DNA from: an uncultured archaeon | GTDB taxonomy: Archaea; Asgardarchaeota; Lokiarchaeia; Sigyniarchaeales; SOKP01 | DNA: 64,000 nt | Direction of reading: 5' to 3' | NCBI GenBank assembly: GCA_964447495.1 | Contig: CAYUTF010000002.1 | Coordinates: forward strand, 51,639 to 115,638 | Shown here: one piece after another, positions 12,211 through 49,580 of the stretch | Layout of the letters: each line of letters starts with the position of its first letter | How positions within the stretch are numbered: the stretch's first letter is position 1 | Notes under the pieces: model-generated | What the model saw: only the letters and a program-made list of their open reading frames with translations | Told to the model about the DNA's origin: nothing | Database searches by the model: none | Translations under genes and position numbers: made by a program

Positions 12211-13660
12211 TCACTCTATGAAAATATTTCTAAATCTATTTATAACTTTTTCAATTATGTTTTTTAACTTTTTAGGACCAATCTTAATTATAATAAAAAG
12301 TGTAATGATTAGGATAACAATAGATAAAGTAATCATTATTCCAATAAGAAACTTGAAGATTAGAGTATAATATATCGATGCTAGTGTTATCTGATAGAGT
12401 GTTGTTATAAAACCTATTTTGAAAAACTGTTTAAAACTGATAGGACGCTTATTTTGTTCAGCTATTTGGACTACTAATATGTTATCCCCAAGCGGTGTAA
12501 GATTATCTCCCCAATTAGCTCCAATAGCTAGACAAAAGAAAAATTGATGTCGCATAGCTGATGGGTAGTTATTTGAAATGGTATTTATGACAGGGATTAA
12601 CAATTTAGTTATAGGAATATTATCAATAGCACTGCTTAAAAATGAAGATATCCAGAGAATAATAATGAGTTGAGAAAATATATCTCCTCCAGAGAGATTT
12701 GACATTATTTCTCCCAGGAATTGAACAACTCCCAGGATATCAAGAGCTCCAGCAATAATAAATATCCCCAAAAGATAGAGGATTAACTCAAAATCTATTT
12801 TAGAAATAATTTGTTTTGCTTCAAGTCTACTAATGATTATTAAAAATAATGCCATAATTAACGCAATTATATCAGTAGGTAATATTGATGTAGGAATAAT
12901 AATAAACAAGATAAATACAAGGATTAACGTAAATAGTGATTTTAATAACAACATTTTATTAGGTACAAAATTCCATACATTAAATTCTCTTAAAATTTTA
13001 ATACCTTCTTGGGGGATGTCTAGGGATTTCCTAAATATAAAAATAAAGAAGACAAGTGTTAAACAAAAATTATTAAAGAAATCGTTCCAACATTCAAAAA
13101 GAAATCAATAAATTGAATATCAGCATAAGTACTAATTAATATATTAGGTATAGATGAAATCGTGAAAAAAGTTCCACCAATATTGACTAAAATTGCTTGA
13201 GTTAGTATATAAGCAGAAGGATTTACATTTAAAATACGAGAAACTGTTATTGTCAGAGGGATAAGTATAATAACAGTCAGAATGTTGTTTAATATCGCAG
13301 AAATAAATATCGTAATTAAACAAAAAATTGACATTAGATAAAGTGGCTTTCCTTTTGATAGTTTAATTAAGTTTAAAGCGATATATTGAAAAAGCCCTGC
13401 TTCATTAGAAATTGCCACAATAAGCATCATGCTTATAATTAAAATAAGGGAGTGAAGATTTACAAAACCTTCACTTTCAGTTCCAAATAATAGTTCAATG
13501 ATTACATTAAAGTTCATTCCTTCTAAGAACGTTCATACAAAATAAACAATAACTGCTCCTGATAAAGCTGCTATTGCTCTATTTAATTTTTCTGTGATTA
13601 TAAGAATTATTACTCCAATGAAACATCCTAAAGCTATAATTATACTAAGAATTTTATAAT
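12211..13660 (-). pseudogene. Disrupted ArsB/NhaD/SLC13-family transporter
   Basis: Track ORFs 13059-13517 and 12211-12954 join through a 1-nt frameshift near 13060; in-frame TGA at 13533-13535; damaged start near 13660; motifs SAILNN and GANWGDNLTPLG. Sequencing error cannot be excluded. Confidence 0.7.
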
Positions 13661-29904: not shown

Positions 29905-31692
29905 TTATCCTTCTTTTTCAATATATTCTAAATTTTCTAAAAGAGATCTTAACTTTAAGGCATTTGCACCTCCAGATACCTGTATATTAACTATTGAATC
30001 CTCATCCGTACCAGTAACATTGGTTTCGATTAATACCTTTTCTGCTCGTATCTGTTTTGTTTGCCGTTTACTTAATGCTTCTTTTAAGGGTTGATCCAAA
30101 TTTGGAAATTCAGCAGCAATTTCTACCCAGACTTCTTTTTGATGAGAATATTTAAACGTAAAATCTGAGACTGTTTGTTTATAAAGTTCTTGATCGCACC
30201 AATTAATTAGATAGGCTCTATTAGGAAATTCAAGATCATCAATTAAATTATTCCTAATTTCAGATAAACTTTTAATATCTCCATTCTTCACAGCGATATC
30301 TATTTTTCTAGCTAATTTTGAATACTTTTTTGCTTTTACTGATTTTATAAAAGAGATCAGATCAAATTTAACTATTAAATCGTTCATTGCATAATTATCG
30401 AGCATTTTTAAATCATTTACTTCTGGAGTTCCATCACGAAAACGAGTAGCTATTTCATAACAGGGCTTTCGATTAATATATCGTTTCTTAATTTCTTCTA
30501 AAACATGTTTAGTAAACTCATATTTATTACCCCAGAATGGTGCTTTCTCCAATTCTCGTGATGTATATTTCACGCGATGGGATATTATGTAAGGTGCAAT
30601 TGTATTTACAATATTAATATCAACTATATTCAAGTTTAATAACCATGCTAAAGCTTTAGAATATCTAAGAAGATCTTTTGCTACTCTTACACTTAGAATG
30701 GAATCAATTTTATTGCAAACGCTTTGTTCGGTGTTGAAATGACATCCAGAACACAATCCAGAACTGGGTTTGATATTTTCAGAATTCCCCTTATCTACGC
30801 GAGCACATAAAGTATATTCTCTTATTATTGCATGAATATAATTATTCACTTCTGTTTCGAATTTCATCTTGTTTACATGGTACCAAATTTCCATGAGACC
30901 ATCAATATGTAAGATTTTAGGTACTTCAATCAATTCATCATATCCAGAATATTTTTCGTCCTTTCCTGTAAGTATTAATGATAAATCATTACTTGTTGGC
31001 ATTGAGATAGGAACTGATATTCCAAAACGATCTAGAAACGGTTGAGACAGTTTTCGAATAATTTGGAAATCAAATTAAATTTCGAATGTCCCAACATCTT
31101 GTGGATTTATAGTAGCATAAAGCGTGTATTTTTCTATAGTATTAATGGCATCGTAATATTTTACTTTTCCTTCAGCTAATAAGGATAAAAGAATATCTTG
31201 GGCATATGGTGTCAATCTGTTGACCTCATCGATAATTTTCCAAAATCCAGTTACAAATTGCCTCCAAACGACTACTTCTTCCCCGTCTTTCATTAACTTT
31301 CCTAATTTTAAAGTCCCTGTAAGTTTTTCTTCTGTGAGTTGCGGTTAGCCGTTAAACGCTGAGAGCGATTAACTATGACCCCTTACAATGGAACTTTCAA
31401 TTTGATCCAATGTCATACCAGTGAACATCCTACCTAATAGTTTAACTAAAGTAGTTTTACCCCCACCATGTCCTCCAACTAATAACATAGCAGAGTTTGG
31501 TACTAGCGCATTTAAAACACACATAGATAAAATTTCAGGCAATGTATTTGTTATAAGCTTCTTCTTATCCTCATTAAAATATTTAACTTCCAAATTTTTA
31601 GAATGAACAAATAATTGATTTGCTTGGATGAGGTTAATAGTGTTCCATACTTTTTTTCTTAATGATTCTTCTTCTCCTAATATATTTGACAT
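29905..31692 (-). CDS. MoxR-like AAA+ ATPase, three exons (31692-31375, 31344-31081, 31050-29905), 575 aa after splicing
   Basis: Walker A GGHGGGKT, Walker B IIDEVNR, sensor NPQDVGTFE|LSQPFLDRF; the three track ORFs are in one frame and separated only by two 30-nt inserts. Confidence 0.9.
31051..31080 (-). other. Putative BHB mRNA intron 2 (30 nt)
   Basis: mRNA GGGACA UUCG AA|A UU UAAUUUG auuuc CAAAUUA UU CGAA AA|C UGUCUC: 6-bp outer helix, 4-bp central helix, two 3-nt bulges; in-frame UAA inside. Confidence 0.88.
31345..31374 (-). other. Putative BHB mRNA intron 1 (30 nt)
   Basis: mRNA GGUC AU|A GUUAA U CGC ucuca GCG U UUAAC GGCU AA|C: 4-bp central helix, 3-nt bulges, inner stem; two in-frame UAA. 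Confidence 0.85.
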
Positions 31693-31805: not shown

Positions 31806-33398
31806 TTAAAACGTGTATTTTTTCCGTTTCTCGGGTAAAATAATGTTCCCTGAAAGTCCAAATTCAGTAAAGGTTTCTGCATGCTCAGTATGCACTGGAA
31901 TGATATTATCGGCTTGAATTGTGGATAACGTAGAAATCAAGTCCTCTACATTAACATGTCCCGAGGAATGGATGGTTTCAGTCTTGATAACACCAAATTT
32001 ATTCAACCATGCATTTAATTTTTTATCTTGAATAACCATTTCTTCATTAAATGGATCTGTTGTAGAATTTATGAATAATATAGAATCTTGTTTCTGATCT
32101 AAATCAATTAATTCGTTCATCATAAAATAATCAAGATACATTAGGTACTTATCCGGCTCAGCTTTAACATCTTTATAATTGATATAATTTTCTTCTTTTA
32201 AAATGATTCGTTCAAATTTTTTATAATCTTCTGATTCGAATTTACCCCATCCTTTCCGTGGTAAATAAATCGATAAAAAGTCATCATTAAATTCAGGTAA
32301 ATTGTAATCTCTATAAAATTCTTTAATATTTTCCTCCTCCATCTCATCAAGTTTTTTCTTTAATGATTCAATATACATATGAATTTTTGGAGTTATAGCA
32401 ATAATACGGTTATTTTTCTTAGCCAAATTATAATATAGTAAGAGTCTATCAAGATTTCTGGATGGATAATTGAATAAAATTAAACCATGATAGTTATTAA
32501 TTAATTCTCCAGAAATCTCTTGGACATCTTTCTCCGATTGAGTATCATCTTTAAATTTTTCATTCTTAAAATCCTCAACAGAAGGCACACGTGTTCCTTC
32601 TGTGATTATTGTTATAGGATTAGACTTTTTAGCATTATTAATAAAAGTTCTTACCCAATCACTATGTAATCCATGTGTTCTAAAATCTCCGGTATAAATG
32701 ATACTTCTTCCGTCGTGTTCTATAATATAGGAACATGCTCCTGGAATGGAATGGTCTACAGGATACTGCGTAATTTTAATCTCTCCATTAGATGTATTAA
32801 AGAAATAAGGCTTACTAGAATCCATCAGTTTAATTTTCCTTAAACAATCGTGTTTCTTATAATCAGTTCTCTTTGCTCTTTTATATTGAATTTCATCATT
32901 AGTTTTTTGCTTCTTTTTTGGAACTTGCTTGAATGCCTCATAAAAATGCAAAATCTCAGGAACTAATGGATCAGAAGAAATTTCATCTAAATAATTAGCA
33001 ATTGCTTCTGTTATCCAATTCATATATATTGGGGTACTTTTCTTAAGGAAGCCTAAGAACTTACAATGATCTAAATGTGCGTGAGTTAGAAAACAAGCAT
33101 CGATTAGATTATCATCAGAGGGCGTTATATTGTATCTTCCTGAACGTAATTTTTCTTTAAATGGTAGAATAAAATCATTTCTGTATATTTTATTGATTGG
33201 AGGGATAAGTCCTAAATATAAATAGTCAATAACACCATTAAATTTTCGAGGATTGAGGAAATTTGAAAAATATTGATTCATATCTTTAAAGGATAATCCA
33301 AAATCAAAACAGAAGGTTTTATCTCCATTCTTTATAAAGATTTTATTTCCTCCAATCTCGTTTATACCACCATATATAGAAACTTGCATGAAAAACAA
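31806..33398 (-). CDS. MBL-fold hydrolase, RNase J/beta-CASP-like
   Basis: GGINEIGGN, THAHLDH, DHSIPG, YTGDFR, HSSGH, PVHTE. Confidence 0.85.
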   Translation of the reverse strand: MFFMQVSIYGGINEIGGNKIFIKNGDKTFCFDFGLSFKDMNQYFSNFLNPRKFNGVIDYLYLGLIPPINKIYRNDFILPFKEKLRSGRYNITPSDDNLIDACFLTHAHLDHCKFLGFLKKSTPIYMNWITEAIANYLDEISSDPLVPEILHFYEAFKQVPKKKQKTNDEIQYKRAKRTDYKKHDCLRKIKLMDSSKPYFFNTSNGEIKITQYPVDHSIPGACSYIIEHDGRSIIYTGDFRTHGLHSDWVRTFINNAKKSNPITIITEGTRVPSVEDFKNEKFKDDTQSEKDVQEISGELINNYHGLILFNYPSRNLDRLLLYYNLAKKNNRIIAITPKIHMYIESLKKKLDEMEEENIKEFYRDYNLPEFNDDFLSIYLPRKGWGKFESEDYKKFERIILKEENYINYKDVKAEPDKYLMYLDYFMMNELIDLDQKQDSILFINSTTDPFNEEMVIQDKKLNAWLNKFGVIKTETIHSSGHVNVEDLISTLSTIQADNIIPVHTEHAETFTEFGLSGNIILPEKRKKYTF

Positions 33399-49480: not shown

Positions 49481-49580
49481 GGGGCTGTGGATTAGTGGAA
49501 GATCGTTCGCTTGGCATGCGAAAGTTAAGGCACTTTTACCTAACCGTAAGAGGCCGGGGGTTCAATTCCCCCCAGCTCCA
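49481..49580 (+). tRNA. tRNA-Ala(GGC) with a 28-nt intron at 49523-49550
   Basis: Acceptor GGGGCTG/CAGCTCC with G3:U70; D stem GATT/GATC; anticodon arm TTCGC-TTGGCAT-GCGAA; T arm GGGGG-TTCAATT-CCCCC. Confidence 0.95.
49523..49550 (+). other. BHB tRNA intron at position 43/44
   Basis: UGCG AA|A GUUA...UAAC CGUA AG|A; removal gives a canonical AGGCC variable loop. Confidence 0.88.

Follow-up and report, generated by a model that had tools for sequence, protein, structure and literature searches.

A probable relaxed bulge-helix-bulge mini-intron in a MoxR-like ATPase gene of a Lokiarchaeial genome

A stretch of 64,000 nucleotides (nt) from an uncultured archaeon (GTDB lineage Asgardarchaeota; Lokiarchaeia; Sigyniarchaeales; SOKP01; assembly GCA_964447495.1, contig CAYUTF010000002.1, positions 51,639 to 115,638 of the forward strand) was analysed and is referred to as the window; coordinates without a prefix are those of the window. 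The subject of this work is a 30-nt insert at 31345..31374, here termed intron 1, which interrupts a gene for a MoxR-like AAA ATPase on the minus strand and was examined as a candidate bulge-helix-bulge (BHB) intron together with a second insert of equal length in the same gene, termed intron 2. The assembly is 3.81 Mb in 223 contigs, 98.4% complete, with 31% G+C. In peptide and codon strings, slashes mark insert boundaries or splice junctions.

The ATPase locus and the intron 1 motif

The ATPase gene was called as three open reading frames (ORFs) of 107 amino acids (aa) (31369..31692), 72 aa (31075..31293) and 365 aa (29905..31002). All three pieces lie in the same frame, and straight translation gives 595 codons interrupted solely by three TAA, at codons 108, 116 and 206, the gene's own terminator also being TAA. 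The middle piece matched Pfam AAA_5/AAA_3. A search of a 5.8-billion-protein collection returned 810 homologues, the best 120 of which were 565-584 aa long (nearly all 574-575) and were labelled MoxR-like or AAA ATPase of Lokiarchaeota/Promethearchaeota, Thor-, Hod- and Hermodarchaeota. When the read-through protein was aligned with 10 homologues (11 sequences), it differed in length by exactly two 10-residue inserts, which sit between blocks invariant in all rows (...SI[VI]RGH/PQLTEEKL... and ...NP.D[VI]GTFE/LS.PFLDR...); apart from the inserts, zero lesions were found in 575 codons. Unspliced, the mRNA would encode the 107-aa fragment only. The features of the locus are as follows.

29905..31692, minus strand: MoxR-like AAA ATPase gene, interrupted by two 30-nt inserts
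31375..31692, minus strand: exon 1, Met to ...IVRGH, with Walker A GGHGGGKT (single-frame translation and orthologue alignment)
31345..31374, minus strand: intron 1, 30 nt, two in-frame TAA, layout 1 + 9 + 5 + 9 + 4 + 2
31081..31344, minus strand: exon 2, 88 codons, PQLTEEKL...GTFE (translation, alignment, Pfam AAA_5/AAA_3)
31051..31080, minus strand: intron 2, 30 nt, one in-frame TAA, central helix UUCG/CGAA, bulges AAA and AAC
29905..31050, minus strand: exon 3, LSQPFLDRF... to the natural TAA stop (ORF, translation, alignment)
31377..31380, minus strand: central helix H of intron 1, 5' strand GGUC, in the exon (Gly codon and C of His; sequence, fold)
31347..31350, minus strand: central helix H, 3' strand GGCU, within the intron (sequence, fold)
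31374..31376, minus strand: 5' bulge B1, AUA, predicted cut between 31375 and 31374
31351..31373, minus strand: inner helix h' with 5-nt loop UCUCA, GUUAA-U-CGC / GCG-U-UUAAC
31344..31346, minus strand: 3' bulge B2, AAC, predicted cut between 31345 and 31344
31333..31388, minus strand: candidate displaced exon-exon helix, 31387..31382 with 31338..31333, which might clamp the motif

On the minus strand, 31340..31384 reads AAGGGGUCAUAGUUAAUCGCUCUCAGCGUUUAACGGCUAACCGCA, of which intron 1 itself (31374..31345) is AGUUAAUCGCUCUCAGCGUUUAACGGCUAA. A preliminary description of this DNA had proposed a relaxed BHB intron downstream of Walker A, with a GGUC/GGCU central helix containing two G-U pairs, bulges AUA and AAC, an inner stem of GUUAA/UUAAC plus CGC/GCG and an outer helix of about 1 bp. 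These elements were all located: the central helix pairs 31380..31377 with 31350..31347, the bulges occupy 31376..31374 and 31346..31344, and the inner stem closes its UCUCA loop within 31373..31351, the whole lying ~27 codons past Walker A. The inner helix has 9 positions, one of them U.U. The estimate of about 1 bp holds for the outer helix that adjoins H, a single G-C pair, and a displaced exon-exon helix of 6 bp is possible. Five of its six pairs form in this genome, and over 11 distinct copies (see below) 81.8% of cells are paired, with one covarying pair; this is weak evidence for the displaced helix because codons and the search pattern determine some of its columns.

The topology of the motif is 5'-H-B1-h'...h'-H-B2-3', as in the BHB motifs of tRNA. 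Under the canonical BHB rule, cleavage occurs after the second nucleotide of each bulge. A description of the motif in bioRxiv 10.64898/2026.10.13.758758 agrees with this rule. Applied to intron 1, the canonical cuts excise exactly 30 nt and give ...ggt cat/ccg caa..., or RGH-PQL, as in all 10 aligned orthologues; a cut moved by +1 or -1 base would alter the invariant His or Pro. Applied to intron 2, whose outer helix GGGACA/UGUCUC is extendable to 9 bp, they give ttc gaa/ctg tct, or GTFE-LSQ. The boundaries of both introns had been set beforehand by protein colinearity, independently of the fold, and the canonical-rule junctions match them with zero offset. At an arbitrary 30-nt window of the genome, all four H pairs occur at 2.4% of positions, H 4/4 with five or more inner pairs at 2.6e-4, and H with five or more outer pairs also at 2.6e-4. 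The 45-nt stretch of intron 1 folds with z = -2.5. Intron 2 folds strongly (z = -3.6 to -4.8); its minimum free energy (MFE) structure has a 6-bp central helix, the 4-bp register being the one that yields the in-frame junction.

Conservation, splicing enzymes and RNA

Related genomes carry G labels (G000 is this genome), and L044 and L047 denote metagenome alleles. The ATPase gene was found at E <= 1e-80 in 29 of the 42 genomes of the genus. G000 carries introns 1 and 2; intron 1 recurs at the identical site in G017 and intron 2 at the identical site in G033 and G028, and the remaining full-length copies of the genus are colinear. Metagenomes were scanned for any 30-nt insert at the intron 1 site with a 3' end able to pair with the Gly-His codons. 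The scan gave 11 contigs, 11/11 of them in the ATPase gene and all clearly homologous to intron 1, and the same pattern run on the species genomes returned the G017 record only.

Structure was counted over 13 rows, representing 11 distinct copies. The H columns are paired in 11/11 distinct homologues, and the single H pair that is free of pattern bias, the third, is UG in 5, CG in 4 and UA in 2, never unpaired. In the inner stem, 91.9% of cells are paired and 4 of the 9 pairs have changed on both sides; the covariation score was 0.210 versus 0.149 in shuffles (0/500 shuffles reached 0.210), and sliding the 3' partners by 1-3 columns left at most 47% of cells paired. RNAalifold on the 13 copies returned the same H, 3-nt bulge and hairpin with the outer helix absent, and the adjacent outer helix (h) is paired in 27% of cells, so the motif was assigned to HBh', a recognised relaxed class of BHB motif (PMC5829648).

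Between G000 and G017 the introns are identical at 25/30 positions and the exons are 70.7% identical, with dS saturated. dN/dS between intron-bearing ATPase genes and relatives is 0.04-0.07, indicating purifying selection on the exons, and flanking exons are intact in 12/12 loci over the ranges seen. Homologous inserts differ in the number and kind of stops (1-3 TAA; TGA in G028). Intron 2 also shows compensatory changes, an H pair having gone from C-G to U-A in G033 and the inner stem from UU../..UU to CAUG/CAUG in G028. In the gene tree, two distinct clades with good support carry intron 1 and three carry intron 2; this patchy distribution could reflect repeated loss or lateral spread. Both L044 and L047 carry intron 1 together with a 30-nt insert at site 2 (L044:213-274, minus strand; L047:783-844, plus strand).

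Two EndA-domain genes were found in the genome, coding for an alpha subunit of 201 aa (L001:1168-1773, contig C196) and a beta subunit of 205 aa (L002:1210-1827, contig C3). The best match of alpha is the catalytic alpha of the A. pernix heterotetramer (3p1z_B, E 8e-36); it retains the catalytic His (GLEHSPF) and has 'NKPR' at the K44/R46 position of the Crenarchaea-specific loop (CSL). In beta the His is replaced by Asp. With the NCBIfam two-repeat EndA model, alpha aligns to the C-terminal half and beta to the N-terminal half. A loop Lys has been shown to confer broad specificity on EndA (PMC3241643), relaxed motifs are cut by the (alpha-beta)2 and epsilon2 forms only (PMC5829648), and Asgard archaea have an (alpha-beta)2 EndA with an L1 loop (PMC5829648; bioRxiv 10.64898/2026.10.13.758758). 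The broad-specificity endonuclease that the preliminary description took relaxed motifs to need is thus predicted here as a two-subunit type, with the His and NKPR loop on alpha and a His-less beta. An RtcB ligase gene is present at C15:12064-13371.

Three metatranscriptome runs (X1, X2 and X3) shared words with the stretch, and all three were placed on it. The X2 contig lies inside exon 2 only and the X3 contigs (95-99% alike) inside exon 1 only, and both are uninformative on splicing. X1 supplied a 224-nt contig with 0 mismatches, whose first 112 nt lie on 31262..31373 and last 112 nt on 31080..31191, corresponding to the following RNA.

31081..31374, minus strand: back-spliced or circular RNA, 294 nt (intron 1 and exon 2; X1 contig)

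In gene sense, the junction joins 31081, the last nt of exon 2, to 31374, the first nt of intron 1, with an ambiguity of 1 nt. Both ends of the 294-nt circle are the predicted 5' cuts, of introns 2 and 1 respectively, and the 3' site of intron 1 is uncut in it. The probability of a random junction hitting both predicted sites was estimated at p ~(2/1021)^2, and a repeat-driven artefact is unlikely because the junction homology is 1 nt.

Other short inserts in protein and tRNA genes

A covariance model built from the intron 1 core and run on the 42 genus genomes gave strong scores for G000 and G017 only (55 bits), and three weak full-length matches, one in a thiolase gene of G015 that proved real, one in a non-coding context and one in ordinary coding sequence. 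On its own genome, at lax thresholds, the model found nothing besides intron 1, and neither blastn-short nor regular-expression searches found another copy of intron 1 or 2 there. In a phylum-wide sample the ATPase gene was present in 206/400 genomes, and among the matches listed was a third insert site, in G207, which belongs to another genus of the same family (L056 = G207:C72:146700-148900, minus strand). This 30-nt insert lies inside Walker A, GGHGGGK/KGG(stop)LSDLFQ/TTLVKLL. The strict finder gave no motif for it at L = 30, and the one assigned by eye has H GGAA/UUCC with AAA for either bulge.

The G015 thiolase match (20.6 bits) is a 30-nt TAA-bearing insert, FTIT/VDYIA(stop)LTVN/ELIN (site B), with H GAUC/GGUU, B1 ACA, a 9-bp stem and B2 AAU; its termini resemble those of intron 1 (A-GUU.AU...UUAAC-GGyU-AA). 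The thiolase gene of the present genome (C52:16570-17787, plus strand; L115/L116) has a 30-nt insert of its own at C52:17195-17224, with an in-frame TAG, at a different position (site A). Its BHB register has a perfect 9-bp stem and 3/4 H pairs and places the cuts one base off the naive in-frame deletion. These cuts create gca a/tg tca, or CCA-M-SDG, and orthologues without the intron read ...FDCCAMSDGAAAL...; the cut rule therefore predicts a residue that plain deletion would not, since the conserved Met ATG arises by the BHB register.

The thiolase was found at E <= 1e-100 in 27/42 genus genomes, with site A (CCA/MSDG) occupied in G000 and G015 and site B (FTIT/ELIN) in G015 and G022. The G015 gene (L108 = G015:C28:21501-24537) is interrupted thrice, at ~901-931, 1207-1236 and 1507-1536, the interruption other than sites A and B being a 31-nt frame-shifting gap, GVEK/LMDEGG, deduced from tblastn frames only. 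Across relatives, the ATPase and the thiolase have three sites each, and all inserts but one are 30 nt; the structurally analysed 30-nt inserts all share the layout 1 + 9 + 5 + 9 + 4 + 2. G024 has one further interrupted thiolase copy, and several other thiolase matches begin near residue 100.

The window also holds a tRNA-Ala(GGC) gene (49481..49580, plus strand), missed by ARAGORN and found by Rfam, with a 28-nt HBh'-like non-canonical intron at ~49523..49550, after the anticodon stem, that starts AGUUAA as intron 1 does. In the genome, 12/53 tRNA matches span 93-105 nt. These spans and the 28-nt tRNA-Ala intron show that the mRNA and tRNA introns of the genome are of one size class. As a separate observation, 17/53 tRNA matches lie on 13 kb of one contig (G000:C80:11-13035), all on the minus strand, in a dense tRNA array.

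Interpretation and rival explanations

It is concluded, at a probability of roughly 0.9, that 31374..31345 on the minus strand is a genuine relaxed HBh' BHB intron in the ATPase pre-mRNA, spliced by EndA and RtcB. Sequence and comparison show the exon GGUC paired with the intron GGCU, the 9-bp hairpin stacked on top, and the scissile bonds exposed in the AUA and AAC bulges. In the proposed mechanism, the two-subunit EndA would cut past the second nucleotide of each bulge and RtcB would ligate the exons, both enzymes being encoded in the genome; excision would restore RGH-PQL and eliminate both TAA codons, and intron 2 (31080..31051) would be removed likewise. The 3' cut of intron 1 may be a weak step, since its bulge has no adjacent outer helix and GGU/ACC pairing can sequester it. 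A molecule cut at both 5' sites and left uncut at the 3' site of intron 1 would self-ligate to the 294-nt circle observed. The further suggestion of the preliminary description, that the two introns may splice with different efficiency or in a regulated manner, is hinted at by two pieces of data, the one circle with an uncut 3' site and the computed GGU/ACC conformer.

Several results weigh against this interpretation. In its 76-nt context intron 1 folds with z = -0.2, so that thermodynamics alone are weak, and the BHB-forced fold (-12.0 kcal/mol) is not the MFE (-13.0 kcal/mol) and takes ~10% of the ensemble; the computed MFE is the competing fold, whose GGU/ACC pairing buries the 3' cut site. 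The metagenome pattern fixed the length at 30 and imposed 3/4 H pairs. The site 2 inserts of L044 and L047 are unlike intron 2 of the window in sequence, and no canonical BHB excising 30 nt could be drawn for them. The circle comes from a single Logan contig (depth 2.5) of one run, and RNA libraries may contain DNA; neither a spliced exon-exon junction nor a cut at the 3' site of intron 1 was seen in the X1-X3 contigs. Two genome-wide screens also gave no enrichment. The first (all four H pairs with three or more flanking pairs, L 12-160, excision joining open frames of 70 codons or longer) returned 21358 matches in true topology versus 21593 in a mirror control, and 221 versus 216 sites when a 'no early start codon' filter was added; the second (9-bp hairpin with 7 or more pairs formed, 3/4 or 4/4 in H, L 28-32) returned 613 versus 602. 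Since the screens give no excess over mirror topology, the BHB motif alone has little predictive power, and protein-gene mini-introns in this genome are either few or invisible to motif-based screens.

The three in-frame stops would also be expected of a pseudogene or decaying gene, with the 30-nt segments as scars of insertion that always stay in the transcript. The gene may be dispensable, as it was not found at E <= 1e-80 in 13/42 genus genomes, several of them rated 99-100% complete, and another gene of the window has a plain frameshift (see below). Such decay is nevertheless very improbable given the lack of further lesions in 575 codons, a dN/dS of about 0.05, the retention of a same-site insert across 11 or more distinct lineages, with substitutions that preserve the structure or compensate for one another, the intact flanking exons in all 12 loci (ranges seen) and an RNA cut at the predicted sites. 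Translational recoding, whether TAA read-through, reassignment or a 30-nt ribosomal bypass as in T4 gene 60, would fit inserts that are multiples of 3 with hairpins and three pieces in one frame; it is scarcely credible for a gene whose own terminator is TAA and whose homologous inserts carry TAA, TGA or TAG, with substitutions that keep base pairs and not codons. A bypass would have mismatched take-off and landing codons (CAU ahead of the gap, UAA at its end), and for intron 2 the frame would be lost by landing at the second GAA. The conserved thiolase Met codon arises only after RNA-level excision, and the back-splice indicates RNA cleavage.

EndA cleavage might instead serve mainly as a destruction or attenuation switch for the mRNA, with dead-end fragments and circles dominating and productive splicing minor or conditional, a proposal that overlaps the regulatory idea of the preliminary description. 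The sole RNA species seen is a non-productive circle with its 3' site uncut, the outer helix is weak, the motif has a competing conformer, and those who discovered the cbf5 intron suggested that it acts as a negative regulator (PMC2738675). Circles are exonuclease-resistant and over-represented, however, and strong purifying selection acts on the downstream exons of every lineage that bears introns, from which it follows that full-length ATPase must be made; a predominantly destructive role is therefore considered improbable, and excision as a spliced intron is preferred.

More tentatively, the inserts of both genes may belong to one uniform class of EndA-dependent mini-introns, 30 nt long and perhaps mobile, colonising protein (perhaps also tRNA) genes wherever the exon tetranucleotide is complementary, with rapid gain and loss between species and incomplete processing that yields exon-bearing circles. 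This extension is speculative and held to be doubtful; if true, the protein genes of the archaeal relatives of eukaryotes would have an economy of introns and back-splicing, with room for regulation at the level of splicing.

Known systems were compared with the ATPase introns. A self-splicing group I or II intron was rejected, as the insert is 30 nt versus a catalytic core of hundreds and the Rfam scan of the window returned one tRNA only. The introns in cbf5 (pseudouridine synthase) pre-mRNA of Crenarchaeota (Desulfurococcales, Sulfolobales) occupy a single site with lineage-specific loss and a patchy distribution, measure 16-39 bp in part of Table 1 of their description, and often have a relaxed motif, the EndA of their hosts being hetero-oligomeric (PMC2738675). 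The present introns are alike in small size, relaxed motif, hetero-oligomeric EndA host and patchy distribution. They differ in their hosts, a MoxR-like ATPase and a thiolase of Asgard/Lokiarchaeia, and in having two introns in one gene, three sites across relatives, a uniform 30 nt and an exon-bearing circle; intron 1 was accordingly not classed as a cbf5-type intron, its host being an AAA_5/AAA_3 MoxR-like ATPase of an Asgard genome and not cbf5/dyskerin of Crenarchaeota. Non-canonical HBh'/hBH tRNA introns of Asgard and TACK archaea share the motif class, an (alpha-beta)2 EndA with L1/CSL loop and the size class (PMC5829648; bioRxiv 10.64898/2026.10.13.758758). Unlike these, the ATPase host is an mRNA that offers no tRNA body for recognition, and excision must be nucleotide-exact to keep the frame.

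Splicing by IRE1 and RtcB is alike in combining an endonuclease with RtcB-type ligation and in being non-spliceosomal, acting on a small structured intron and altering translation. The IRE1 splicing of HAC1/XBP1 is unlike that of the ATPase intron in its twin stem-loop motif and IRE1 nuclease and in being eukaryotic and stress-regulated. RtcB acts in XBP1 mRNA splicing (PMC8718801). In archaea, RNAs left by EndA with 2',3'-cyclic phosphate and 5'-OH ends become circularised (PMC3326292, PMC12558985). Those BHB circles derive from tRNA and rRNA introns and rRNA intermediates, whereas the 294-nt circle holds a coding exon and an unexcised intron, and would therefore stem from half-processed BHB sites of two different introns. 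The SOS splicing of DNA transposons from animal mRNAs (PMC12779559) offers a conceptual likeness, in that an insert is recognised by its own base-pairing and its removal at the RNA level rescues the gene; machinery, element size and domain of life differ, and no membership is claimed.

In the sources consulted, EndA-type introns in protein-coding genes have so far been described for a single family, cbf5 of Crenarchaeota, and no published report of BHB introns in Asgard protein genes was found in the full-text literature, which yielded tRNA introns only (subscription journals and bioRxiv supplements lay outside the search). Gene callers split or drop such genes in metagenome-assembled Asgard genomes, one gene having become three ORFs here. 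The ATPase and thiolase introns offer a testable system for the action of a tRNA-splicing enzyme on mRNAs, for intron spread and for partial splicing as regulation, in the closest prokaryotic relatives of eukaryotes.

The candidates of the two screens were also inspected. Among the top 40 of the first, with Pfam run on both pieces, only the ATPase and an ArsB/CitMHS transporter resembled one gene, and most of the others had at least one piece without a Pfam match. Of 28 top sites taken from the second, 27 were run against Pfam and the thiolase alone was confirmed; two others, a rhomboid (C69) and an SDR (C19) candidate, proved to be uninterrupted ORFs. The ArsB/CitMHS-type transporter gene (12211..13517, minus strand) is interrupted not by an intron but by a 1-nt frameshift in a T run near 13059..13068, orthologues running straight through the break (...ISLLIFVFTLIFFIF...); the shift is either genuine or a fault of the assembly. 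The gene directly upstream of the ATPase (31806..33398, minus strand) codes for a beta-CASP/RNase J-like metallo-beta-lactamase ribonuclease with an RMMBL domain.

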